Of a DNA stretch of 64,000 bases, positions 24,270 to 55,592 are shown in pieces; position 1 is the first letter of the stretch, and each line of letters begins with the position of its first letter. Under the pieces are notes generated by a model. It made no database searches and was not told where the DNA came from. It saw only the letters and a list, made by a program, of their open reading frames with translations. The translations under genes were made by a program, and so were the position numbers. Origin of the DNA: a bacterium (GTDB lineage Bacteria > Bacteroidota > Bacteroidia > Bacteroidales > FEN-979); NCBI GenBank assembly GCA_037141055.1, contig JBAXDH010000005.1, forward strand, positions 90 to 64,089. Reading direction: 5' to 3'.

Positions 24270-24998
24270 CTATTTGAGGTCGCTGGCTTTGGCCTGCTCG
24301 ATGATCACATCGTAGGTGTAGCCGGAACCGAAATCCCTGTTCAGGGCAACAATCCCCATGAAGGTGGCTTGCCTTCCAACTGCAACACTATCCATGGATG
24401 TGATGGTTACGTCAAATCTGTCTGAAAAGTCGGTGCCGTCCTGAATGTGAAACCAGTTTTTATTCATGATCTGGCTGTTGAATTTCACAACCACACCCCT
24501 GATGGTCACCGTTTTGCCGGCATACATCCCCGGGTTTTTATAGAGATCTGCAATGGTTATCCCGCCTTTGGGTGGGGTAACCGAGACTTCCGACCATCGT
24601 TTGATGTCTGGTTTTTTAGGAGTCAGTGGCGGCTGGTTTTCTGGCGGTGCGGTTGCCAGGGTGCTTTTGGGATCCTGTACAAAAAAGATGGAGGGGAAGG
24701 TGCGCCCCAGTTCCTTGCTTACAAAATTTTTCATCTCATATGCCTGGGCATAATAAACCGAATCTCCCGGCTTAGAGGCTGTTTTTACAACGGCTATCCA
24801 GAATTTGGCCCCGTTTTCCTCGACCTGCAGGTATGTGTAATTGCTCGTTTGAATGACCTCAGTGATCACGGTCCCGTGTGTTCCTGCGGGTAATACCGGC
24901 CCCTTGTTCTTCCCTCCGCTGCGGTAAAATATTGTCACGATGAAAAACGCTCCGAGGAGCAGCAAAACGACTGGAAATATAATTTTGTTCTTATTCAT
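24270..24998 (-). CDS. Hypothetical membrane-anchored/secreted protein with two OB-fold-like halves
   Basis: Start trimmed to ATG 24998 (MNKNKIIFPVVLLLLGAFF). Has an SNYTYLQVEENGAKFWIAV half and a KTVTIRGVVVKF...WFHIQDGT half. No family assigned with confidence. Confidence 0.35.
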   Translation of the reverse strand: MNKNKIIFPVVLLLLGAFFIVTIFYRSGGKNKGPVLPAGTHGTVITEVIQTSNYTYLQVEENGAKFWIAVVKTASKPGDSVYYAQAYEMKNFVSKELGRTFPSIFFVQDPKSTLATAPPENQPPLTPKKPDIKRWSEVSVTPPKGGITIADLYKNPGMYAGKTVTIRGVVVKFNSQIMNKNWFHIQDGTDFSDRFDVTITSMDSVAVGRQATFMGIVALNRDFGSGYTYDVIIEQAKASDLK

Positions 24999-25188
24999 AG
25001 ATAAAAGGGTTGTCCTGTTTTTTTTATTTTTCAGGGTGCAAAGATAAAAAATAATTTGGTACCAGCCGACAACAGGGGAAAGGCATTGCTGCCGCATAAC
25101 AGGGAGGCGGTTGGAGTCAGAAAGTTATACTGAATCTTGGCAGGTTTGCAATCGCAAAGCTGCTTTAATTCAGTCATACTGAGCGTTT

Positions 25189-25242: not shown

Positions 25243-26877
25243 TTAGAATCGCTGGGTGATATTGATGTATACGCGGTTGAATATCTGGTTCCTGTCGAAT
25301 GTTCCTTCATAATAGACTCCGCAGGAGAGTTTTCTGAGTATTCGCCAGGTAAGATTGACTTCGGCCATGTTTTGAGACAGTTTCGATTCTCCGCTGTAAA
25401 ATTTGTAGCTGACGTAGCGGTAGCCCAATTCTCCCGAAAGTTTTCCCGGGACAAGGTCGCGGGAGATCCCAAGGCTGTATATATTACCCGACATGTAACC
25501 TGTTTCCAGTATGGTCGCGGAAATGGTTGCGGATGCCCGGATGCCCGGAATGTTGCTGTAGGTGATATAGCCGTACAGGTTTTTTGACGGGTGGGGGTCT
25601 TTTTTACTGCTGCGGTATCCGGCGTTTACACCAATGGATAAATTATTCACGGGCTGGTAAGTTACCTGCGCTGTAAAGCCCTGGACTGCTGCTGCTTCCA
25701 GCAGTTTGTCGACAATTGACTTGTAGGTTTCGTAATAGATTACATTTTGCCGCGTGCTGTAGGAAACGGTGAGTGACAATTGCCGGATCGGTTTATACCT
25801 GAGGGATACATATAAATTCGAAAGAACCGGCGAGTTGTTTTGTGTGTATGTCGTATCCTTGCTGACGGCTGTATCCATCTGGTTCATGGTTTTTTTATAC
25901 AGGTCGACTTCCACCGATCCGAAAAAGAACAAATTGCGGATGAGCGAATTCGTGTGCTGCAGGTAGGCAAACCTCCGGTCGGTGGATCCGCTGTTCGTTT
26001 GTTGGATAAAGGCAAGGGTTGTTTGCATATTCCCGTTTTTCGTCGACAGGTCATGACCTACATAACCTCCTAATTGCAAAAGGTTTGGATTGAAACTGTA
26101 ATTTTTGTAGTCAGGTCTCGTGCCGGCGATGAGGCCAATGGTGAATTTGCCTGCCCTCAGTTCATATTGAAGTCCGTCGATGGCCCCGACGTTGGAAATC
26201 CTCGGGTTTATTTTCCGGCCCAGCCAGAGGGTGTTGGATTTGTTGAATTCATAATTAAATGCCAGGCTGTAGATTTTCAGCCCATTGAACAGGTCATTCC
26301 GGATTTCGCTCCAGTTGTCAAGTTTGTGAGCAAATGAGATGTAGGTTTCAGCAGATAATTTCGTGTTTCCGATATTCTGAATCGCCATCGAAAACGTATA
26401 CCGCATGCGTTGCGAATTGGCTGTGATGTTGGAGAAATTCGAATAGGAAGCAAGGGAAATATTTCCGCTGACAATCTGCTTTAAGGCTTTTGCCCCGGGT
26501 TTTACCGGTGCAATCGTGTCCGCTGCCACAGGAACAGGCTGCGGTGCTTCCGTTGCCGTGGCGACCGGAGTTTGAGGGCTCAATAATTGTCTGGTTGAAA
26601 ATACCTGGTCGCCCACTGAAAGTTTGATGCCGGGAAATGGCACGCACACGCATGAAATTGAAGAAATATCACTGACGGCAACGGCAGGAATGCGAACACC
26701 GTTCTGAGTGATGAACAGCGTATCCCCGGCAGAAATGTTCTCTGTGGATTGAAATTTAACATAGATATTCTGCGAGGTCACATAGGACACCTTGCCTTCC
26801 CTGGCTTCCGGAAGGTTCTGACCTGCAAGAAAGGTCCACGAAAATATCAGCAGTATTGCTGGCAGCAGGATTTTCAT
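25243..26877 (-). CDS. Outer-membrane beta-barrel protein with an N-terminal soluble domain and Pro/Ala-rich linker (candidate porin of a porin-cytochrome complex)
   Basis: 544 aa with signal peptide MKILLPAILLIFSWTFLAGQ. An ~85-aa N-domain is followed by the linker SPQTPVATATEAPQPVPVAADTIAPVKPGA. About 410 aa of alternating amphipathic strands end in the OMP-type C-terminus ...YINITQRF. Confidence 0.6.
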   Translation of the reverse strand: MKILLPAILLIFSWTFLAGQNLPEAREGKVSYVTSQNIYVKFQSTENISAGDTLFITQNGVRIPAVAVSDISSISCVCVPFPGIKLSVGDQVFSTRQLLSPQTPVATATEAPQPVPVAADTIAPVKPGAKALKQIVSGNISLASYSNFSNITANSQRMRYTFSMAIQNIGNTKLSAETYISFAHKLDNWSEIRNDLFNGLKIYSLAFNYEFNKSNTLWLGRKINPRISNVGAIDGLQYELRAGKFTIGLIAGTRPDYKNYSFNPNLLQLGGYVGHDLSTKNGNMQTTLAFIQQTNSGSTDRRFAYLQHTNSLIRNLFFFGSVEVDLYKKTMNQMDTAVSKDTTYTQNNSPVLSNLYVSLRYKPIRQLSLTVSYSTRQNVIYYETYKSIVDKLLEAAAVQGFTAQVTYQPVNNLSIGVNAGYRSSKKDPHPSKNLYGYITYSNIPGIRASATISATILETGYMSGNIYSLGISRDLVPGKLSGELGYRYVSYKFYSGESKLSQNMAEVNLTWRILRKLSCGVYYEGTFDRNQIFNRVYINITQRF

Positions 26878-26887
26878 CGCGGTGGGT

Positions 26888-29059
26888 TTACTCTTTACGT
26901 TCCAATATGTTCATCATTTTACCCCCGGATCCCGTAGGATGGCAGTTGTAACAGGCAGCACTGTTATAGGAATACCCGCTGATACCCTGGTGCTTGCTGT
27001 TTGTTGAGGATTGGGGATGGCAGGAGGTTGTGCAGGTGAATACGGCATAATTTGCAGGATTTGTATGGCAGTCGGCACAGGTATTCCATTTCCCGTTGTG
27101 CCTTCCCGAATAAATCGGAAAGTACTGGCCGTCGTGGTTCCAGTTGGCCGGATTCCAAGCTGTTTGAGAATGGCAGTCGGCACATGTGGTCGGGAACTGT
27201 GCAGCCGCATGCCCCGGGTTCGTGGTCTGGTTGTAATTCGTCAGGTGGCAGCCGACACATGTGTTGGGAGTTGTATTGTAATTCCCGTTGTGGCAGGTGA
27301 TGCAGGGCACGGATATATGCGCCCCGGCCAGGACATAATAATTGTTGTGAATCGGGAAGGTGGCAGGTGTCCAGTTCGGGTTGGTTGTATGACAAGTATT
27401 GCATGTTGAAGGATAATTGCCTGCGGCGTGGCTCGGGTTGACCGATGTGTTGTAGTTCGGCATGTGACAACCTGCACATGTATTGGGTGTGTTCACATAA
27501 CTTCCCTGGTGGCAGGCAAAGCAATTGTTGGCGATGGCGGCATGAGCTCCCGTTAGCGGATAAACATTGTTATGATTAAAGTTCGATGGCGACCAGGCAA
27601 TCTGGGAGTGGCAGGTTTCGCATGTAGTCGGGAAGTTTGATGTAATATGGTTGGGATTTGTCGATGCATTGTATTTGTCGGCATGGCATCCGAAACAAAC
27701 TCTTGCAGTTGTGTTGGTGTAGGTACCATTGTGGCACTTTGCACAATCATTGGCAATCGGGAGATGTGCCCCCGCCAGTACATAATAATTATTGTGTATG
27801 GCAAACGATGCCGGTTTCCATGTCGGAAGCGTAGAGTGGCATGTTCCGCAATCAGTGGGAATGCTAATCGCAGCATGATTCGGATTTACCGATTGGTTAT
27901 AGTTTTGGGTATGACAATTATAGCACACCATTGAAGTGCCAGCATAACCTTGAGAATGACATTTGATGCATTCTGTAGTAAGATGCGCTCCTGTAAGTGG
28001 AAAAGGGGATGTGGCATGGTTAAATGTTCCTTCTTTTGAACCTGTGGGATGGCAGGCATAGCAGGCTGGGCTGTTATAAGCATAGCCTTGAACTTCTTTG
28101 TGACCATCATTCATGTCGGGTTGGTTGTGGGCATGGCAATCAATGCAGGTAAACTGCTGATAGCTGGCCGGGTTGTTGTGACATTCGGCACAGGTGTTCC
28201 AGGTTCCGAGATGTTTCCCTGAATAAATGGGGAATGATTTGGTGTCATGTGTCCGGTATTCGGCCGGTTTCCATCCGATTTCGGTGGTGTGGCAGTCATT
28301 GCAGGTCGTTGAAAAGCCAATGGAAGAGTGGTTTGGATTTACCGTACCATTGTAGTTTGCAAGGTGACAGGAAACACATTCCCGGGAAGTACTGGCATAA
28401 TTCGGTGTTTTATGACAATCCTGGCAGGCACTGTTTGCATGTCCCCTGGTAAGCGGGAAAAAATCATGGTTGATGCCGGCTCCCGTCCATGAACCGGAGG
28501 CCATGTTGTGGCAGTCAAGGCAGTTTTTCGAAAAGCCCCCTGCCGTGTGATTCGGGTTTGTCGTGGCCGTATAATCTTTTTGATGACAATCAATGCATTC
28601 AACGCCAAGCGGGCCAAAATACAGTCTGGATGCTGATGCATTTTTGTGACAGTCGAAACAATCTGCGTTAATATGTTTTCCGACCAGCGGGAACCGGCTT
28701 CGCTGGTGAATCTCCGTAATATTATTTATAACCCAGGATATTGGAGTATGGCACCTTCCGCAGTCGGGTCCCAGGGTTTGGTTGTGCATGTCGGTGTGGC
28801 AGGAAATGCACTGCTTTCCTGCTTTGCTAAACTCCAGCGACGTGTGGCACAACCTGCAGTTCACGGCCTTATGCTGCCCTGCGAGCGGGAATTTTGTCGT
28901 ATTATGATCAAACGACAGGACCTTCATGTCAATTTTCCACCCGGTGGTGGAATGGCAATCCATGCAGTTCACAGTGAAGTTGACTCCGTGCGGAGATTTC
29001 TGGGCAAACAGGCTTACAGAAAGTATCAGCGCCAATATTAATGATGACAGTTTTCGCAT
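26888..29059 (-). CDS. Multihaem c-type cytochrome with 28 predicted haem sites
   Basis: 723 aa with a signal peptide. I count 27 CxxCH plus one CxxxCH (CTTSCH), about one haem per 26 residues. It overlaps the upstream cytochrome gene by 22 nt. Confidence 0.9.
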   Translation of the reverse strand: MRKLSSLILALILSVSLFAQKSPHGVNFTVNCMDCHSTTGWKIDMKVLSFDHNTTKFPLAGQHKAVNCRLCHTSLEFSKAGKQCISCHTDMHNQTLGPDCGRCHTPISWVINNITEIHQRSRFPLVGKHINADCFDCHKNASASRLYFGPLGVECIDCHQKDYTATTNPNHTAGGFSKNCLDCHNMASGSWTGAGINHDFFPLTRGHANSACQDCHKTPNYASTSRECVSCHLANYNGTVNPNHSSIGFSTTCNDCHTTEIGWKPAEYRTHDTKSFPIYSGKHLGTWNTCAECHNNPASYQQFTCIDCHAHNQPDMNDGHKEVQGYAYNSPACYACHPTGSKEGTFNHATSPFPLTGAHLTTECIKCHSQGYAGTSMVCYNCHTQNYNQSVNPNHAAISIPTDCGTCHSTLPTWKPASFAIHNNYYVLAGAHLPIANDCAKCHNGTYTNTTARVCFGCHADKYNASTNPNHITSNFPTTCETCHSQIAWSPSNFNHNNVYPLTGAHAAIANNCFACHQGSYVNTPNTCAGCHMPNYNTSVNPSHAAGNYPSTCNTCHTTNPNWTPATFPIHNNYYVLAGAHISVPCITCHNGNYNTTPNTCVGCHLTNYNQTTNPGHAAAQFPTTCADCHSQTAWNPANWNHDGQYFPIYSGRHNGKWNTCADCHTNPANYAVFTCTTSCHPQSSTNSKHQGISGYSYNSAACYNCHPTGSGGKMMNILERKE

Positions 29060-30654
29060 TTGAATTCTTTTATTTTATAAAGTATAAAAGCTATTCCTTT
29101 ATCCTGTGCTGGTTTGTGACATTTCGCACAGGCAACATTTTTATGTTTTCCGTCCAGTGGAAAAAGAGTTTTACTATGATCAAATTTTGTGACGGGCTTG
29201 AAAGCATCAACGCCATGACAGGAAAAACAGTCGGTTTCCCCGTTTTTCTCAAACTGCCTTGCATGAATATCCGTATGACAACTGAAGCATGTTTTGGGCA
29301 ATCCGCTGAATTGCTGGGTTGGTTCAGCGCCTTCCGTTTTTTTGAAATGACAATCCCTGCATGTTTTTTTTGCATGCGCACCGGTAAGTTCGAAATTGGT
29401 TTTGGCATGATCAAAATTAACTTTGCTCCACCTTGCTTCACTGTGGCAACTTTCGCAACTGGATCCGGGATAATACTTGTCACTGATAAAATTCTGATGG
29501 TAATTTTTATGACAATCAATGCATTGTTTCCCGATCTCCCTGAAATGCCATGTTGTATCGGTTTTCGAGATTTGTTTTTTATGACATGCAAAACATGGCG
29601 TGGCAAGGTGTGCTCCCTTGAGCGGGAAAATACCCTCATTGTGCTGGGCAATGGTATAGTTGAATTCTTTAAATCCGTATACGGTATGGCATTGTGAGCA
29701 GTCGGGAGACACACCTTGTTTGGCAAACTGGTTTTTATGATAATCGGTGTGGCAGTCGGTGCACTTGTCAAATTTTAAAGCATTTGTAAGTTTAGTTTTA
29801 TGGCATTCGATGCAGGTGACTTTTAAATGTCTGCCATAAAGTTTGAAGTCAGTTTTGTCATGGTCGAAATTTTGTCCTCCCTTGATGATGCTGAATGATG
29901 ATCCAGTATGGCATTGTGTGCATACCTGGCCGAATTTGTTGTTATGCGCATCTTTATGGCAGCTGGTGCAGTTATCGAATTTGATGCCCTTGAATTCCTG
30001 GTATTTCAGATTGTTTTTAACGCCAATTTTATGACATGTAACACAAAGAACTTCCTGGTGTTTGCCGACCAGTTGAAATTTTGCTTTGTTGTGATCAAAT
30101 TTTGTAACCGGTTTGAAAGCTTCCTGATCATGACATTCAGCACAATTTGCTGAAAGTGTTTGCTGATGGTAATCCGTATGGCATGTTAAACAAGCGGGAT
30201 TCAATCCAAGATAGGTAAATGTCTTCTTTTTAATTTTTTGATCCGAAATGTGTTCGCGTTTATGGCAGTCTATGCACTTTTTCTTTGCATGGGCCCCGGT
30301 CAGTTTAAAACCGGTAAGGTCATGGTTGAACTTATCCTTGTCAAAACGTATGATCTGAAAGTTAAGCCCGTGGTGGTCGCTGTGACAGGAAACGCATTCT
30401 TTTCCTTTTACGTCTGAAGAAGAATGATACCCTTTTTGCAGGTCGGTTCGTGCTTTAAGTTCGGTATGGCATTCAAGACATTTTTGATTTGAAACCTTTT
30501 TTCCAAGGATGTGGCATTTTGTACAGTTCGTTATTCCCTCGAGACTGGTATGTGCTTTAGAAAGTTCGCCGGGCGAAATCTGTCCGAACCCGGATCGGGA
30601 AAACAGAACGACCAGTAAAAATGCAACCGAAATATGGTTGATGTTCAGTTTCAT
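29038..30654 (-). CDS. Multihaem c-type cytochrome with 20 predicted haem sites (c7/c3-like repeat modules)
   Basis: 538 aa with a signal peptide. I count 20 CxxCH. The module CxxCHTDxH...CxxCH...FDH...F.L.G.H...CxxCH recurs. Confidence 0.9.
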   Translation of the reverse strand: MKLNINHISVAFLLVVLFSRSGFGQISPGELSKAHTSLEGITNCTKCHILGKKVSNQKCLECHTELKARTDLQKGYHSSSDVKGKECVSCHSDHHGLNFQIIRFDKDKFNHDLTGFKLTGAHAKKKCIDCHKREHISDQKIKKKTFTYLGLNPACLTCHTDYHQQTLSANCAECHDQEAFKPVTKFDHNKAKFQLVGKHQEVLCVTCHKIGVKNNLKYQEFKGIKFDNCTSCHKDAHNNKFGQVCTQCHTGSSFSIIKGGQNFDHDKTDFKLYGRHLKVTCIECHKTKLTNALKFDKCTDCHTDYHKNQFAKQGVSPDCSQCHTVYGFKEFNYTIAQHNEGIFPLKGAHLATPCFACHKKQISKTDTTWHFREIGKQCIDCHKNYHQNFISDKYYPGSSCESCHSEARWSKVNFDHAKTNFELTGAHAKKTCRDCHFKKTEGAEPTQQFSGLPKTCFSCHTDIHARQFEKNGETDCFSCHGVDAFKPVTKFDHSKTLFPLDGKHKNVACAKCHKPAQDKGIAFILYKIKEFKCENCHH

Positions 30655-30662
30655 GATTTTTG

Positions 30663-31997
30663 TTACCTGTGCTTTAACACGGCATCACCAAATTTTTTGG
30701 TGATGAGGATTCCGATTTTTTGTAAAAACTGAATTGGAAGTTCTCCTCCGGCAAAAATATAGATGAGATCATTCTTGATTTTCAACTCGACCGGATCAGT
30801 TCCCACAGTTACAATGATATCGTCCTTTTCAATGCGGACGGGGTTTGTGTTAAACATGACCTTTAGAAGACCGCTGGCTACCGCCTCATTGATTTTTTCA
30901 TTATTCTTCGGTTTTATACGGCTGAAAGCATCGCCGCGGTAGGTGAGGGTTACCTTATTCAGATCGGCGAGGAGCAGGGCTGACTCAATGGCTGAATCAC
31001 CTCCGCCGACAACCATGATATCCTTTCCGGATATTTCTTCAGGTTCTAACAGCCGGTAAGCAACTTTTTCCATAGTTTCACCGGGGATGCCGAGTTTTCG
31101 GGGAGTTCCCCTGCGCCCAATGGAGAGTAATACTGCTGCAGTAGTGAATTGTTCTCCGGTAAGGGTTTCCACTCTGAAATGCCCGTTTTCCGGAACAATG
31201 GCTTCCACTTTTGAATTCTGCCTGATCACAATGGTGTGTTTGTCCAGAACGCTTGTCCAGAAATCAAGTAATTCGGTTTTGCTTGTCTCCGACAACTTCA
31301 CTTTTCCGTGGAGGGGAACATCCATAGCAGTGGTCATCACTATTTTTGACCGCGGAAACGTAAATACAGTGCCACCTAATGTGTCCTGCTCGAGTGTTAA
31401 AAACTTAAGATGATGTTTTTTTGCGTTCAGGGAGGCGGATATTCCGGCTGGGCCTGCTCCGATAATAATGAGGTCGTAGGAGGCTGAATGATTTTTCTTC
31501 AGCGATTTAACGATGTTGTCCACTGCCTGCCTGCCCTGTTCAACGGCATTCTTTATCAAACCCATCCCGCCAAGTTCTCCTGCAATGAAAATCCCCGGAA
31601 CATTGGTCTCAAAATGTTGGTTAACATGGGGTAAATCAACACCTCTTTTTTCCGTCCCGATGCAAAGTGAAATGGCCTGTGTCGGGCAGGCATGAAAACA
31701 TGCACCGTGGCCGATGCAATGGGAGGCATTGATCGTGGTCGCTTTGCCGTTCCTGATACCAAGGATGTCTTTTTCGGGGCAGGCAGAGATGCACGCCCCG
31801 GTTCTGATGCAGCTTCCTTCATCAACGACAGGGTGGAGAGAAACAGGTTCATACAAACCGTCGAGTTTAGCCTGAACGATCTTTTGTTCAACTTTTTTGG
31901 AATCGCGTGATTGTTTGCGCAGGTAAATAAAAATAATGATCAGGCAGAGACCGATCGCTACCGAGTAGATGACAATTTGTTCAAAAATCAGTTCCAT
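30663..31997 (-). CDS. Membrane-anchored ferredoxin-like / FAD-NAD(P)-dependent oxidoreductase (thioredoxin-reductase-like fold)
   Basis: 444 aa. One N-terminal TM helix is followed by RKQSRDSKK (cytoplasmic by the positive-inside rule). Has two degenerate Fe-S motifs CIRTGACISACP and CIGHGACFHACP, a GxGxxG (IIIGAGPAG) and a second dinucleotide motif VVGGGDSAIE. Confidence 0.75.
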   Translation of the reverse strand: MELIFEQIVIYSVAIGLCLIIIFIYLRKQSRDSKKVEQKIVQAKLDGLYEPVSLHPVVDEGSCIRTGACISACPEKDILGIRNGKATTINASHCIGHGACFHACPTQAISLCIGTEKRGVDLPHVNQHFETNVPGIFIAGELGGMGLIKNAVEQGRQAVDNIVKSLKKNHSASYDLIIIGAGPAGISASLNAKKHHLKFLTLEQDTLGGTVFTFPRSKIVMTTAMDVPLHGKVKLSETSKTELLDFWTSVLDKHTIVIRQNSKVEAIVPENGHFRVETLTGEQFTTAAVLLSIGRRGTPRKLGIPGETMEKVAYRLLEPEEISGKDIMVVGGGDSAIESALLLADLNKVTLTYRGDAFSRIKPKNNEKINEAVASGLLKVMFNTNPVRIEKDDIIVTVGTDPVELKIKNDLIYIFAGGELPIQFLQKIGILITKKFGDAVLKHR

Positions 31998-32000
31998 GAC

Positions 32001-32870
32001 TTAGAATATCCAACGATAACCAAAAATGATTGTAACCGCAACGTGAATAATCATGATGATCAGCATAAGAATGGCAAAAGGCAGATGTGCCACGTGCCAG
32101 TATTTAAACAGTTCCTGCATAATAACAAGCCGGTCGATCCTCCTGTTTAGTGAAATGTCACTCTTAACAAGGTTCAGGATTGCTTTCTGCTGCGGTTTGG
32201 TAATGTTGTTTTTCCTGAGAATTGTTTTTACGTTTCGGACTGTCTTTGCGTCTTCCCGGTATTTATTGAAAAAGCGTACAAAAAAGTTTCCCTGATATAA
32301 TTCGACTTTCTTTTTGGTCGAATCAACAATCACATTGTAGCTTTCGTCGTCAAGGGCAACAAGTTCCCGGATGGTGTCTCCGATGTTGCTCTTCATCTCC
32401 CTGACTTCATTTAAACTCAGTTCCCTGCCTTCTATTGTACGCGGTATCTGAATATATATAAATCTGCCTATGATGCCGCTCAGGAAAACCGCAACCATGC
32501 TCCAGAAACTGATAGCAACGAGTCCTCCGAATTTGAAAGAGGTATGAAAAAGGACCAGGATCGGTCCTAAGGAACAGAGGAAAATATGGAATTCAAGCCA
32601 GTGCTTGAGAATACCCACCCGTGTAAGTATCCTGAACCGTTTCCGGATCATGTAAAAGGAGACCCCGATGAGCATCAGGAATGAACCGATTATACCCAGC
32701 CCATGTCCCCAAACTCCGCTGGGTTTCAGTAGTATATAGTCAGGGTGAAAGAACCTGTCTTCAATTCCGAGCCTGTAGTATGGAAATCCGATGTAGGTTA
32801 TTGCAATCAGGGCTGCAGCGACAATGGAGGATAATATTAAGAGATATATGAAATGTGCAATTTTAGACAT
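32001..32870 (-). CDS. Five-TM membrane protein with two His-x13-His pairs (candidate di-haem b-type transmembrane electron carrier)
   Basis: 289 aa with 5 hydrophobic helices. H95/H109 lie in TM3 and H262/H276 in TM5, each pair 14 positions apart. A ~115-aa Lys/Arg-rich loop lies between TM4 and TM5. A 3-nt gap separates it from the flavoprotein gene. Confidence 0.5.
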   Translation of the reverse strand: MSKIAHFIYLLILSSIVAAALIAITYIGFPYYRLGIEDRFFHPDYILLKPSGVWGHGLGIIGSFLMLIGVSFYMIRKRFRILTRVGILKHWLEFHIFLCSLGPILVLFHTSFKFGGLVAISFWSMVAVFLSGIIGRFIYIQIPRTIEGRELSLNEVREMKSNIGDTIRELVALDDESYNVIVDSTKKKVELYQGNFFVRFFNKYREDAKTVRNVKTILRKNNITKPQQKAILNLVKSDISLNRRIDRLVIMQELFKYWHVAHLPFAILMLIIMIIHVAVTIIFGYRWIF

Positions 32871-33764: not shown

Positions 33765-33804
33765 GTTTCACTATTTCACCATTTCGCTATTTCACTATTT
33801 CGCT
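33765..33804. repeat. Five tandem 8-mers (minus strand AGCGAAAT AGTGAAAT AGCGAAAT GGTGAAAT AGTGAAAC) filling the comA-aroE spacer
   Basis: Read directly. The array spans the comA stop (33803) to 6 nt before the aroE ATG (33758). The same unit recurs at 53771-53798. Confidence 0.85.
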
Positions 33805-34591
33805 ACTTTAGCTGGAACTTCTTATATTTTGCAGGCAGGAAGCTGAAGAAAGTATCCCCCCTCAAACCAAGGCGCAATGTTTCGAGCGGGATCAGTTCGG
33901 CAGGGGCAATATTTCCAAGGTTCACATTGGCGCCAAAATTTTTGATAAACCAAACCTGCTGTGCTTTTAATGGTGCTTCCCAAAGCAAGTTGGCGGCATC
34001 GATCTTTGCCAGGATTTTGTTTATAAGAGCAGTGTTGGCTTTCCCGGTTGAACCATAAATGCCCACAGTCCCACTCTCGCGTGCTTCGCCAATAACCTTG
34101 AACGAGCCTGCCTGCAACTCTTTTTGCATCATATCAATCCACCGGCCGGGAGCGATCAGGATGCCTGATTCCTTTGAACCAACTTCGGACAATACTGTGA
34201 AGTTTTTGGCCAATTTATGGATGTACTCGCACTTGACATCGTGATCCATGAGCATTGAACCGTCGGAAACCTCAACTGAATCGAGGCCAAGCCGGTCAAT
34301 ATACTTCAGGTAATCATCAAAAAGGTTGCGGATCACAAATGCTTCGAAGAGGGTTCCACCGGCATACACTTTGATATTTGCATCATGGTAGACTTTTACT
34401 TTCTCCTTCACCTTGTTGCCGACAACGGATGTTCCGAATCCGAGTTTGACAAAATCAGCAAGGTGACCTGCCGATTCAACAAAGTCTTCAGCCTCGCGCA
34501 CGCTGAGGCCTTTATCCATCACCATGGCGATTCCGTTTTGCCTTGGCTTGGCTGCACGGTCGGGCAGAAAGGGCAGGGTATGTTCAGTCAT
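33803..34591 (-). CDS. comA: (2R)-phospho-3-sulfolactate synthase (ComA family)
   Basis: 262 aa that aligns well by eye along its length to the Bacillus YitD/ComA sequence as I recall it (FVKLGFGTS, GGTLFE, LSEVGSK, EARESGT, LETLRLGLRGDTF). Confidence 0.85.
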   Translation of the reverse strand: MTEHTLPFLPDRAAKPRQNGIAMVMDKGLSVREAEDFVESAGHLADFVKLGFGTSVVGNKVKEKVKVYHDANIKVYAGGTLFEAFVIRNLFDDYLKYIDRLGLDSVEVSDGSMLMDHDVKCEYIHKLAKNFTVLSEVGSKESGILIAPGRWIDMMQKELQAGSFKVIGEARESGTVGIYGSTGKANTALINKILAKIDAANLLWEAPLKAQQVWFIKNFGANVNLGNIAPAELIPLETLRLGLRGDTFFSFLPAKYKKFQLK

Positions 34592-53798: not shown

Positions 53799-53945
53799 GG
53801 TATCTCAATTGAAATGCTCAAGGTCATCGGATAGTCATATAATCAGCTACATGAAAATAGGTGTTTGCCCTACAAGCTTTTTCTGAACGACCTACATCTC
53901 CTAAAGAATTTCATTCTTAAATTGATCGCCATAAAAAGTAAAGCT

Positions 53946-55592
53946 ATGAAGCGACTGATAACACTAATAATTTTGACGGTCATTGTTTCTACAACATATT
54001 GTCAACTGCCCAATGGCAGTATTGCTCCTGATTTCACCCTGAAGGATATCGACGGGAATACGCGGCATCTTTACGACTATCTTGATTCGGGGAAAGTGGT
54101 GGTCATCGACTTCTTCGAAGTCCTTTGCGGCCCATGCTGGATTTACCATGAAACACACGCTCTCGCCCATGCATTCAATGTCTGGGGGCCTCAGGGAACC
54201 AACCAGCTGATGGTGTTCGAAGTGGAAGGAATCAAGAGTTCGGTTAATCAGATCAAGGGATTGGCAAACCCCACCAAGGGAAACTGGACAGATGGCGAGC
54301 CATTTCCGTTTATTGCCACCTGTGCTCCGAATGGCGACAAAATAGTAAAGGATTACACGATCAATTTTTTTCCGACGGTGTACATGATCTGCCGCGACAG
54401 GCGTATTAAACTTATCGGTACAGCAGACACAGCAATGATTCATGCACGGCTTGGCCAATGCCCGGTAACCCCTGCTGACAGCCTTTTTCTGGACCTGTTG
54501 AGTATTGACTCGATTATGCCGGTAACACAATCAAAGACAGTTCACCCCATCCTTCAATTTCAGAATTATGGCACAAACCTTATTACCAGTGCTAAAATCA
54601 GCGCAACCATTGATAATCTTTCACCTGTATCACTAACATGGTCAGGAAATCTGAAAACTTATGATGCACTTCATTTCGACGGAAATATATTCTCTCAGGT
54701 TACAGACGGTTCCCACATCATCAGGTATCTTGTTACTGAACTGAATGGACAAACGACCGGTTTTAAACAGGACACCATCAGCATACGCTTCACCAGCGAC
54801 CAGGTCCCTTTCCCCGTGCCATTCACGCAGAATTTTACCGATCCGGTTTTTCCATATAATAAATGGACGATAAACAATGCCTATAAAAATGTTCCGACCT
54901 GGGAACGCGCTGAACTTGGATATGCCAACTCTTTAAGAATTCCTTACTTTAACATACTTCCCGATTATACCAGTGAACTATACATGCCATGCCTTTCATT
55001 TGCAGGGAATGACAAGCCCTGCATGCGCTTTGATCTTTCCTGCACCCATAATAACTCAGTGATACGCCAGGGTGGTTATGACCTGATAGAATTCGATTAT
55101 TCACTCAACTGCGGAAATACATGGCAACTGATGGCACAGATATCTTCCCTTGACCATCAGACGGCTCCGGATGATTCCACCTATTTTATCCCGACGGAAA
55201 CCCAATGGAAACCTATGTACATCGATCTCACAAAAATTGCCGGGAGAGAGTCTGTGCTGGTAAGGCTCGCAACCAGTCCTGCATATGGAAACAATATGTA
55301 CCTGCGTAACATCCGTTTTGATAATACAGCCGGCATCAATGATGAGGCAATATCGCCGGGAATTCATGTTTACCCGGTTCCGGCAACGGATGTGCTGTAT
55401 TTGAAATTATCCAGGGCAGTGAATATCTCTGTGATTGAACTGTTTGATATAACAGGGGCCGTGGTGCTCCGGATGGCCAATCCTGCGGGCAGGGAAATTG
55501 CAATCCCGATTGCGCAAGTCTCACGTGGCCTTTATTTTTTGCGCATTCTCAGCGATGGGTACATTTCAGTACGAAAAGTTCAGGTCGAATAA
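53946..55592 (+). CDS. Secreted thioredoxin-fold (TlpA/redoxin-like, CGPC) protein with a T9SS type A C-terminal sorting domain
   Basis: Start trimmed to ATG 53946 (MKRLITLIILTV). Has APDFTLKDIDGN...VVVIDFFEVLCGPCW and a C-terminal beta-sandwich tail …VYPVPATDVLYLKL…GLYFLRILSDGYISVRKVQVE. Confidence 0.7.
   Translation: MKRLITLIILTVIVSTTYCQLPNGSIAPDFTLKDIDGNTRHLYDYLDSGKVVVIDFFEVLCGPCWIYHETHALAHAFNVWGPQGTNQLMVFEVEGIKSSVNQIKGLANPTKGNWTDGEPFPFIATCAPNGDKIVKDYTINFFPTVYMICRDRRIKLIGTADTAMIHARLGQCPVTPADSLFLDLLSIDSIMPVTQSKTVHPILQFQNYGTNLITSAKISATIDNLSPVSLTWSGNLKTYDALHFDGNIFSQVTDGSHIIRYLVTELNGQTTGFKQDTISIRFTSDQVPFPVPFTQNFTDPVFPYNKWTINNAYKNVPTWERAELGYANSLRIPYFNILPDYTSELYMPCLSFAGNDKPCMRFDLSCTHNNSVIRQGGYDLIEFDYSLNCGNTWQLMAQISSLDHQTAPDDSTYFIPTETQWKPMYIDLTKIAGRESVLVRLATSPAYGNNMYLRNIRFDNTAGINDEAISPGIHVYPVPATDVLYLKLSRAVNISVIELFDITGAVVLRMANPAGREIAIPIAQVSRGLYFLRILSDGYISVRKVQVE

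Follow-up and report, generated by a model that had tools for sequence, protein, structure and literature searches.

A Predicted Di-Haem Inner Membrane Protein at the Head of a Flavoprotein and Multihaem Cytochrome Operon in the Bacteroidales

A Five-Gene Operon in a Bacteroidales Contig

The stretch of DNA analysed here (the window: 64,000 nucleotides of contig JBAXDH010000005.1, assembly GCA_037141055.1, from a member of the Bacteroidales of lineage FEN-979) encodes a membrane protein of 289 amino acids that is predicted to bind two b-type haems and that stands at the head of an operon with two very large multihaem cytochromes. We refer to it as the inner membrane protein (IMP), after the protein of that name in the putative porin-cytochrome clusters (PCC) 3 and 4, whose signature it carries (see below). 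Its gene is the first of a tight five-gene operon on the minus strand, with the following members:

32001..32870, minus strand: IMP gene, an open reading frame (ORF) with an ATG start; 289 aa, five transmembrane (TM) helices, predicted di-haem b protein of the PCC3/PCC4 type
30663..31997, minus strand: flavoprotein, 444 aa, which combines an N-terminal TM anchor with an Fe-S domain of the ferredoxin type and an FAD/NAD(P)H domain that resembles TrxR/YpdA but lacks the redox CxxC
29038..30654, minus strand: cytochrome c, 538 aa, with 20 CxxCH motifs and a signal peptide; Pfam Cytochrome_C7/c3/MtrC-like
26888..29059, minus strand: cytochrome c, 723 aa, with 27 CxxCH motifs, one CxxxCH motif, and a signal peptide
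25243..26877, minus strand: probable outer-membrane beta-barrel protein ("porin"), 544 aa, with a signal peptide and the C-terminus ...ITQRF

The junctions between consecutive genes measure 3, 8, -22, and 10 nt: the flavoprotein gene starts 3 nt past the stop codon of the IMP gene, and the genes for the 20-haem and the 27-haem cytochrome overlap by 22 nt (29038-29059). This overlap, together with the distances of 3-10 nt at the other junctions, suggests that all five genes are translationally coupled. Scans for sigma-70 promoters and terminators were uninformative for this Bacteroidota operon. The product of the last gene has no Pfam match; it shows 24 alternating-hydrophobic 9-mers and ends in a phenylalanine, features of a barrel fold that make it the probable outer-membrane barrel of an electron conduit.

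Hydropathy and two AlphaFold2 models agree on five TM helices in the IMP, at residues ~3-33, 53-78, 88-109, 117-141, and 255-283. Histidines are found at positions 6, 42, 56, 90, 95, 109, 259, 262, and 276; among these, H95 and H109 lie within TM3, H262 and H276 within TM5, and H56 within TM2. Both pairs are spaced i/i+14, that is, as HX13H. An earlier note on this DNA had read the five hydrophobic helices and the placement of these histidines from the ORF, and both are borne out here, as are the codons that it quoted for H262 (CAT at 32085-32087) and H276 (CAC at 32043-32045); H95 is encoded at 32586-32588 and H109 at 32544-32546. Two further elements were absent from that account, namely the tryptophans W91 and W258, each of which stands four residues ahead of the first histidine of a pair, and an SGXXG motif in TM4. 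The parts of the protein that are discussed in the following sections are:

32664..32708, minus strand: TM2 glycine face G55/G59/G62 (outer half), with Y73 further along (inner end)
32544..32600, minus strand: TM3 motif W91-x3-H95-x13-H109; G102 is halfway between the histidines and shares their face of the helix
32466..32480, minus strand: TM4 motif S131-G132-x-x-G135 (SGXXG; here S131-G132-I-I-G135), a small-residue face in the cytoplasmic half
32109..32447, minus strand: cytoplasmic helical insert between TM4 and TM5, residues 142-254, 113 aa, poorly conserved
32043..32099, minus strand: TM5 motif W258-(H259)-x2-H262-x13-H276, with M269 midway on the same face

The distribution of charge supports an N-in/C-out topology by the positive-inside pattern. 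Averaged over 81 relatives (see below), loop 2 holds 5.3 K+R and 0.1 D+E, the long TM4-TM5 insert holds 20 K+R and 13 D+E, and the periplasmic loops are almost neutral. These family-wide counts agree with the earlier placement of both the RKRFRILTR stretch (residues 76-84) and the long insert in the cytoplasm. With this topology TM3 and TM5 would be parallel, and H95 and H262 would therefore lie in the cytoplasmic leaflet and H109 and H276 in the outer leaflet, at matching depths.

Conservation of the Histidines and of the Helix Faces

The IMP belongs to a very large group of proteins: in a collection of 5.8 billion sequences we found more than 7,300 relatives, all of them unnamed or "hypothetical" and without a precomputed Pfam domain, and 2,792 relatives are present among cluster representatives at 50% identity. 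For the analysis of conservation, 81 full-length representatives were aligned, which are 29-57% identical to the window protein and have a mean column identity of 32%; all values below refer to this set. H109, H262, and H276 are invariant and H95 is conserved at 99%, in an alignment that has only seven invariant columns in total, and the four histidines were still invariant after the addition of Gemmatimonadota sequences of 23-29% identity. The earlier note had proposed the conservation of these four residues among homologues as a check on its reading, and at 99-100% the conservation of the histidine pairs is far beyond chance. H56 and H259 are kept in close relatives and substituted in distant ones, and are therefore not universal ligands.

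The remaining conserved positions are distributed over TM2 to TM5 and their cytoplasmic ends. TM2 contributes the invariant G59 and Y73 together with G62 (95%) and G55 (88%), TM3 contributes W91 (91%) and G102 (93%), TM4 has S131 and G132 (99% each) and G135 (100%), and TM5 has an invariant W258 followed by H259 (93%). Conserved cytoplasmic features are R76-K77-R78 and, at the end of TM4, R136/Y139/P143/G148/E150; Y73, R136, and Y139 are situated at the cytoplasmic ends of helices.

To describe the orientation of these residues, we calculated a helical conservation moment for each TM helix at 100 degrees per residue and evaluated it by a permutation test. A significant conserved face was found for TM2 (p = 0.0000), TM3 (p = 0.0005), TM4 (p = 0.03), and TM5 (p = 0.0000), with the strongest moment of all five helices in TM2, and no significant face was found for TM1 (p = 0.22). 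The TM3 histidines deviate from the moment of their helix by 16-56 degrees, a range that becomes 27-67 degrees once they themselves are excluded, and the TM5 histidines deviate from theirs by 11-29 degrees; all four thus stay within 11-67 degrees of the conserved face, even without their own contribution to it. On the ligand helices the conserved residues form a stripe that can be written W-x3-H-x6-(G102 or M269)-x6-H, and on the non-ligand helices the conserved face consists of small residues, G55/G59/G62 on TM2 and S131/G132/G135 on TM4.

Because they are located on the conserved sides of TM3 and TM5, the four histidines are probably inward-facing. Histidines that face lipid had been named in the earlier note as a finding that would speak against two haems; at the sequence level, they lie on the conserved helix faces instead. 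The layout of TM2 to TM5 appears as expected for a four-helix di-haem bundle with a peripheral TM1, and the glycine face of TM2 may be the packing surface for the outer haem. Conserved glycines are also known from the non-ligand helices of cytochrome b, a parallel to the small-residue faces of TM2 and TM4.

The insert between TM4 and TM5 is the least conserved region of the family, with a consensus that is mostly "x", and with a pLDDT of 56-68 it is the least confident part of the models; in proteobacterial relatives it is shorter (~85 aa). The suggestion that this long cytoplasmic loop docks the flavoprotein is without support in these data.

Some relatives have N-terminal extensions, which in P0164 comprise ~245 aa with a weak match to DUF6572 and in P0268 a zinc ribbon. 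P0198, in which the IMP is seemingly fused to a CxxCH fragment and the C-terminus of the flavoprotein, is probably a frameshift or an assembly chimera and was not used as evidence.

The Signature of the PCC3/PCC4 Inner Membrane Protein

Two putative porin-cytochrome clusters, PCC3 and PCC4, were defined by He et al. (2017; PMC5566968), with a "conserved inner membrane protein" of ~300 aa and five TM helices that carries WX3HX13H on TM3 and on TM5 and SGXXG on TM4. The window IMP has exactly this signature: 289 aa, five TM helices, W91-x3-H95-x13-H109, S131-G-x-x-G135, and W258-x3-H262-x13-H276. The genomic context is likewise that of the published clusters, with the 20- and 27-haem cytochromes and the inferred porin encoded in one operon; haem numbers of 21-27 and 10-35 were given for the cytochromes of PCC3 (PMC5566968). 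It should be noted that the assignment to PCC3/PCC4 is a signature match, homology being shown only to the trio-type IMP on proteobacterial plasmids (hhalign 99.7%; see below). These trios were described in the same study as "MHC + IMP + redox protein" (MHC, multihaem cytochrome): shorter proteins with two HX13H motifs, whose neighbours are cytochromes with 7 to 10 haems and a protein of 600-700 aa termed "another redox protein" (PMC5566968).

For the IMP of PCC3 and PCC4, two b haems were predicted by analogy with the ferric-reductase domain and cytochrome b, and a link to the quinone pool was proposed (PMC5566968). The di-haem reading of the window protein, to which the earlier note had come from the spacing of the histidines, is therefore sound but not new; it is essentially the published prediction for this class. 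Conservation, helix faces, and operon context now speak for two stacked b haems on the histidines of TM3 and TM5 in addition to that prediction, and the haem itself stays predicted.

Besides the two predicted b haems, the window operon shares with PCC3 and PCC4 the company in which its IMP is encoded, a probable porin and a pair of multihaem cytochromes of very large size. Its gene content sets it apart from PCC3: the PCC3 clusters are described as having four genes and no flavoprotein, whereas the window operon has a TrxR-like Fe-S flavoprotein as its invariant second gene. Bacteroidota, Ignavibacteria, and Gemmatimonadota do not occur in the text or the supplementary lists of He et al. (PMC5566968), where the clusters are mostly proteobacterial, and no published description of an operon of the type seen in the FCB group (Bacteroidota, Ignavibacteria/Chlorobiota, and Gemmatimonadota) was found in the open-access literature. 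What this analysis adds is the occurrence of a form of the conduit throughout the FCB group, the TrxR-like Fe-S flavoprotein that invariably belongs to it, and the case for a direct input from NAD(P)H.

The Partner Flavoprotein

The flavoprotein matches the Pfam families Pyr_redox_3 (7e-42) and Fer4_10 (5e-10), and its closest solved relatives are the NADPH-dependent YpdA/Bdr proteins and the TrxR-type ferredoxin-NADP reductases. The Fe-S domain is encoded within the gene as follows:

31653..31835, minus strand: Fe-S domain of the flavoprotein (residues 55-115), with two three-cysteine motifs

The two motifs read C63xxT66xxC69xxxC73P and C94xxH97xxC100xxxC104P. The usual second cysteine of a ferredoxin-type motif is replaced by Thr or Ser in the first motif and by His in the second, and among 76 flavoprotein orthologues the six cysteines and His97 are invariant and position 66 is always Thr or Ser. 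Such three-cysteine motifs suggest a [3Fe-4S] and/or a His-ligated [4Fe-4S] cluster, and not a standard 2x[4Fe-4S] domain.

Distribution and Conservation of the Operon

When single genomes were scanned for each species, at least 582 of them contained an IMP relative, and we evaluated the gene neighbourhood for the best 80 of these loci, in which the IMP is 56-85% identical to that of the window. The flavoprotein gene lies directly downstream of the IMP gene in all 80. The first cytochrome is present in 76 and the second in 75, and the barrel gene is found in 58, many of the misses being due to contig ends. The flanking genes aroE and comA are kept in just six of the 80 loci. The same gene order also surrounds the relatives in the Ignavibacteria (38-47% identity) and in the Gemmatimonadota (23-29% identity), a membrane-anchored NAD(P)H-type Fe-S flavoprotein stands beside the IMP in seven of seven more distant contexts as well, and homologues of the barrel-like protein are encoded by the final gene of the module in Emticicia (E 1e-111; see below) and in Gemmatimonadota (E 6e-12).

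In two loci, L083 (12317-15563) and L096 (11191-15484), the public gene calls consist of small reverse-strand ORFs, and the forward strand encodes cytochromes with 20-40 CxxCH motifs. The gene caller seems to fail on these repetitive genes rich in Cys and His, and such conduits may consequently be under-counted in automated surveys. Two Ignavibacteria-type loci encode, between the IMP and the flavoprotein genes, a TPR protein of ~200 aa with a weak CcmH/CycH-like match (L081, 10893-11486; L095, 9885-10490).

Plasmid-Borne and Proteobacterial Relatives

A tblastn search of plasmids showed the whole module to be present on the 100-kb plasmid pEMTOL02 of a cultured bacterium, Emticicia oligotrophica DSM 17448 (positions 78197-90781 of the record). 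There, ccsA is followed by the genes for the IMP (WP_015031196.1, 52% identical to the window IMP) and the flavoprotein, and then by genes for two "cytochrome c3 family" proteins (635 and 1001 aa), for a hypothetical protein of 538 aa, and for a protein with a GW domain.

The same search revealed shorter relatives of the IMP (~242-253 aa) on five plasmids, one each from Methylophaga, Alteromonas, Legionella, Qipengyuania, and Acetobacter. In an alignment with the family profile that covers TM2-TM5, the Methylophaga protein has the four histidines in register (hhalign probability 99.7%, E 1.9e-25), and the SGXXG motif is present as SGFVG in the proteobacterial relatives. On all five plasmids, the gene upstream of the IMP gene bears the annotation "2Fe-2S iron-sulfur cluster-binding protein", and downstream lies a short ORF, which is annotated as a cytochrome c on three of the five and has seven CxxCH motifs in Alteromonas. 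In Alteromonas and Methylophaga, the upstream protein comprises FAD_binding_6, NAD_binding_1, and a C-terminal 2Fe-2S domain according to Pfam and is thus an FNR-type NAD(P)H dehydrogenase; this FNR-type partner has a weak match to the ferric-reductase NAD-binding domain as well, and the Alteromonas protein has a TM helix ahead of the FNR-type module. For Qipengyuania, Acetobacter, and Legionella, the same gene order is given by annotation only.

The three-gene set is often found near copper or heavy-metal resistance genes (copA/copB-like multicopper oxidase, P-type ATPase, DUF411, DUF2933), and in Alteromonas it adjoins a [NiFe]-hydrogenase cluster. Its makeup and setting suggest an electron supply for periplasmic metal handling.

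Two unrelated classes of membrane-anchored NAD(P)H/flavin/Fe-S partner are therefore encoded beside the same IMP, which argues for an input from cytoplasmic NAD(P)H. In our view this is the strongest available argument that the cytoplasmic partner of the IMP would be a flavoprotein that oxidises NAD(P)H rather than the quinone pool, or at any rate rather than that pool alone.

A Proposed Path for Electrons through the IMP

The sequences show the motifs and how well they are kept, which faces of the helices are conserved, the signal for the topology, which domains the partners contain, and an operon that recurs across phyla. That the IMP binds haem, how the subunits touch, what the donor is, which way electrons flow, and that the barrel sits in the outer membrane are what we infer. 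The reading that we favour, and that we hold to be reasonably probable, is that the IMP is the inner-membrane electron-transfer subunit of a five-gene, PCC3-type conduit for extracellular electron transfer (EET), a di-haem protein that is fed from NAD(P)H and passes electrons outward.

In this mechanism, TM2-TM5 would form a four-helix bundle with TM1 at its periphery, and the glycine and serine faces of TM2 and TM4 would leave room for the porphyrins. An inner b haem in the cytoplasmic leaflet would be ligated by H95 and H262 and an outer b haem in the outer leaflet by H109 and H276; given 14 residues with a rise of 1.5 A per residue, the irons would be ~21 A apart. The N-terminal TM helix of the flavoprotein would hold its Fe-S domain at the membrane surface, and electrons could pass from NAD(P)H via FAD and the Fe-S clusters to the inner and then to the outer haem b. 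From there the path would lead onward to the 20-haem and 27-haem c-type cytochromes, through the outer-membrane barrel, and to an external acceptor, for example Fe(III), Mn(IV), or humics. The arrangement may be seen as a NOX-like wire from NAD(P)H to the outside that is split into subunits, with Fe-S clusters inserted, and it would not require the quinone pool. As export from NAD(P)H builds no proton-motive force, the likely role would be that of a redox sink for fermentative or facultative anaerobes.

Several of our results, as well as the state of the literature, weigh against this reading. The window IMP has no match in Pfam or NCBIfam, and when all PDB sequences were searched by phmmer and with two family profiles, from one of which the cytoplasmic insert had been deleted, no di-haem protein was returned even at E<=10. 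No member of the family attains a Pfam gathering score, the best value being 25.2 against a cut-off of 26.7 for DUF4405. Comparison of the family profile with the single E. coli sequences of MsrQ, CybB, and YodB by hhalign gave probabilities below 1% (0.1% for CybB and YodB); the alignments with MsrQ and CybB extend over the TM5 histidine pair and were treated as not significant. Foldseek searches of the PDB with both AlphaFold2 models, which are of moderate quality (pLDDT 76 and pTM 0.58 for model 1; pLDDT 80 and pTM 0.69 for model 2, with Gemmatimonadota sequences added), gave nothing significant (best E 0.37-0.48). All-helical TM bundles that contain a long helical insert suit this method poorly, and it is probably the insert that led to the top matches (F-BAR domains, chemoreceptor domains, and ABC-transporter helices); the di-haem cytochrome b561 (4o7g) was found only at E 1.9, with a TM-score of 0.19-0.24.

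In addition, two Bacteroidota loci, L014 (11256-18082) and L072 (5244-11421), encode the IMP-flavoprotein pair without a downstream multihaem cytochrome or barrel; the genes for its partners may lie in other places here, or loss of the conduit may have left the pair behind, and the two loci point to the pair as the conserved core. PCC3 was still termed functionally unverified in 2023 and 2025, the haem of the IMP class being a prediction, and for the proteobacterial PCC3 clusters, with their four genes and no flavoprotein, the authors proposed a quinone link (PMC5566968). Finally, the step that exports electrons from NAD(P)H does not conserve energy, and the rationale of a redox sink is an assumption.

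Comparison with Known Haem Proteins

Below the Pfam thresholds, matches recur throughout the family: of the 81 members, 54 match DUF4405, 32 match Ferric_reduct, and 20 match Ni_hydr_CYTB, all of which are families of two-haem membrane cytochromes. The best DUF4405 (PF14358) match reaches 25.2 bits and E 2.3e-5 among ten members scanned individually and E 1.6e-5 over the 81 (threshold 26.7 bits), the best Ferric_reduct (PF01794) match reaches 17.8 bits among the ten and E 2.6e-4 over the 81 (threshold 28 bits), and the best Ni_hydr_CYTB (PF01292) match reaches 18.9 bits (threshold 30.1 bits); all of these scores lie below the thresholds. In the ten members scanned individually, the matches to DUF4405 and b561 are mostly on TM5 and those to Ferric_reduct on TM2-TM3. 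The statement in the earlier note that the protein has no obvious family thus stands for the curated databases (Pfam, NCBIfam, and PDB) only; it gives way before the literature, with its exact PCC3/PCC4 signature, and before these recurrent sub-threshold matches. At best, the IMP family would be a remote and unproven relative of the two-haem clan, and it is in no current Pfam family.

Two HX13H pairs on two helices, with haems stacked across the membrane, are the arrangement of cytochrome b of bc1/b6f. The likeness to the IMP extends to the parallel orientation of the two helices in a four-helix bundle, to the conserved glycines on the two non-ligand helices, and to the predicted stacking of the haems. 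Cytochrome b of bc1/b6f has eight TM helices whereas the IMP has five, and the IMP has no sequence match to it, no recognisable Qo- or Qi-site signatures, and other partners. A bc1-type cytochrome b and a NarI/FdnI-type subunit were both considered as identities and set aside, as there is no sequence signal and the helix count and the partners differ.

The ferric-reductase superfamily (PF01794: NOX, FRE, STEAP, MsrQ/YedZ) has bis-His pairs on TM3 and TM5, the helices on which the IMP has its histidine pairs, and carries electrons across the membrane from a cytoplasmic NAD(P)H/flavin module, as is proposed for the IMP. Its members have six TM helices, whereas the IMP has five, with HX13H on both ligand helices. 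The predicted dehydrogenase of the IMP is a separate polypeptide with a different (TrxR-like) fold and with Fe-S clusters in between, and the acceptor would be a multihaem cytochrome and not O2, an Fe-chelate, or MsrP. The DUF4405, FezC, and PepSY-TM (FoxB) cytochromes (PMC11334425) are, like the IMP, small bacterial membrane proteins with four central conserved histidines, and for a DUF4405 protein and for FezC the binding of haem b has been shown experimentally (PMC11334425). Unlike the IMP, DUF4405 is described as having six TM helices and is tied to ApbE flavinylation systems, whereas the IMP operon is without apbE or a flavinylated partner; the matches of the IMP to DUF4405 are short (~23 residues) and below threshold.

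CymA, CbcL, ImcH, and CbcBA occupy the same position in their pathways as we propose for the IMP, between the metabolism of the cytoplasmic membrane and periplasmic multihaem cytochromes. They are quinol dehydrogenases with c-type haems or HydC/FdnI-type b haems, whereas the IMP contains no motif for c-type haem and has a flavoprotein of the NAD(P)H type as its partner.

Alternative Explanations

To our knowledge, the characterised EET pathways of Gram-negative bacteria all leave the cytoplasmic membrane via quinol dehydrogenases or the quinol pool, and CymA, CbcL, and ImcH work in this way in other bacteria. The IMP could accordingly be a quinone-coupled cytochrome b that exchanges electrons with the menaquinone pool, the flavoprotein either feeding this pool or having a separate role; such coupling is the published model for the motif class, and proteobacterial PCC3 clusters are reported without a flavoprotein (PMC5566968). 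This would leave unexplained the invariant flavoprotein beside the IMP, in 80 of 80 loci and in all seven distant contexts, as well as the second, unrelated class of NAD(P)H flavoprotein beside the proteobacterial relatives, and no quinone-site motif is known for the IMP family; we therefore regard quinone coupling as rather unlikely. Electron flow could also run the other way: the cytochromes and the barrel would draw electrons from outside, for example from minerals with Fe(II), from Fe(0), from humics in the reduced state, or from a partner cell, and the IMP would hand them to the cytoplasmic flavoprotein. PCC3 was discovered in Fe(II) oxidisers and discussed as a possible route of uptake (PMC5566968), and the inner-membrane component of one PCC3 copy is up-regulated in iron-oxidising cells of Sideroxydans CL21. 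By established bioenergetics, transfer to a flavin/NAD(P)+ couple near -320 mV would be uphill against both the Fe(II) potential and the membrane potential, and the operon encodes no energy-coupling subunit, which makes uptake through this system, in our estimate, distinctly improbable.

Haem might also be absent altogether, the histidines binding another metal, the protein being a transporter or sensor, or the system supplying reductant for the maturation of the very large cytochromes c. Such a role would agree with the negative outcome of the searches for a significant match among haem proteins of known structure, with the position of the module behind ccsA in Emticicia, with the CcmH/CycH-like TPR gene that is sometimes inserted in Ignavibacteria, and with the copper and heavy-metal islands in which the proteobacterial relatives reside. 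Against it stand HX13H pairs on parallel helices at matching depths, the preceding tryptophans, and the glycine-rich partner helices, which together are the signature of a di-haem four-helix bundle, and every conserved neighbour is an electron-transfer protein; we consider a function without haem very improbable.

Implications for the FCB Group

The observation holds up and has biological meaning. Its family, which is of very large size, is entirely "hypothetical" in annotation and has no Pfam model, and the window operon gives the 2017 prediction for the PCC3-type IMP a defined candidate electron donor. The cultured, plasmid-borne example in Emticicia oligotrophica DSM 17448 makes this prediction directly testable in a ready experimental system.

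More tentatively, and with somewhat less than even expectation, we propose that the FCB group, as represented by at least 582 species genomes from Bacteroidota, Ignavibacteria/Chlorobiota, and Gemmatimonadota, has a quinone-independent, NOX-like respiratory short-circuit that leads from a membrane-anchored NAD(P)H flavoprotein, with its unusual three-cysteine Fe-S motifs, directly to a di-haem b wire and on to 20- to 30-haem cytochromes that span the periplasm and the outer membrane. If true, five genes would provide a complete path for electrons from the cytoplasm to a mineral and an electron sink for largely fermentative anaerobes, and this would explain how the abundant fermentative Bacteroidota and Ignavibacteria of sediments, sludge, and aquifers could dump electrons on iron minerals or humics. 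The link of NAD(P)H, flavin, Fe-S clusters, and two b haems would then be an entry point other than the quinol dehydrogenases. The combination of a flavoprotein, a five-TM di-haem protein, and a periplasmic multihaem cytochrome would represent a general and so far uncharacterised export of reducing power, the same core having been recruited on proteobacterial plasmids for periplasmic metal handling.

Neighbouring Genes

One further gene downstream of the operon has a counterpart at the same position in Emticicia:

24270..25097, minus strand: accessory membrane-anchored protein, 275 aa, related to a "GW dipeptide domain" protein

It follows the barrel gene after a gap of 145 nt, its product is 37% identical (E 1e-40) to that of the gene following the Emticicia module, and it is found in only 18 of the 80 loci. 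Two genes upstream of the operon, the window encodes a homologue of ComA, (2R)-phospho-3-sulfolactate synthase (33803-34591, minus strand), and at 53865-55592 on the plus strand it encodes a protein with a type IX secretion system (T9SS) C-terminal sorting domain; both agree with an origin from a Bacteroidota chromosome and are unrelated to the IMP operon.

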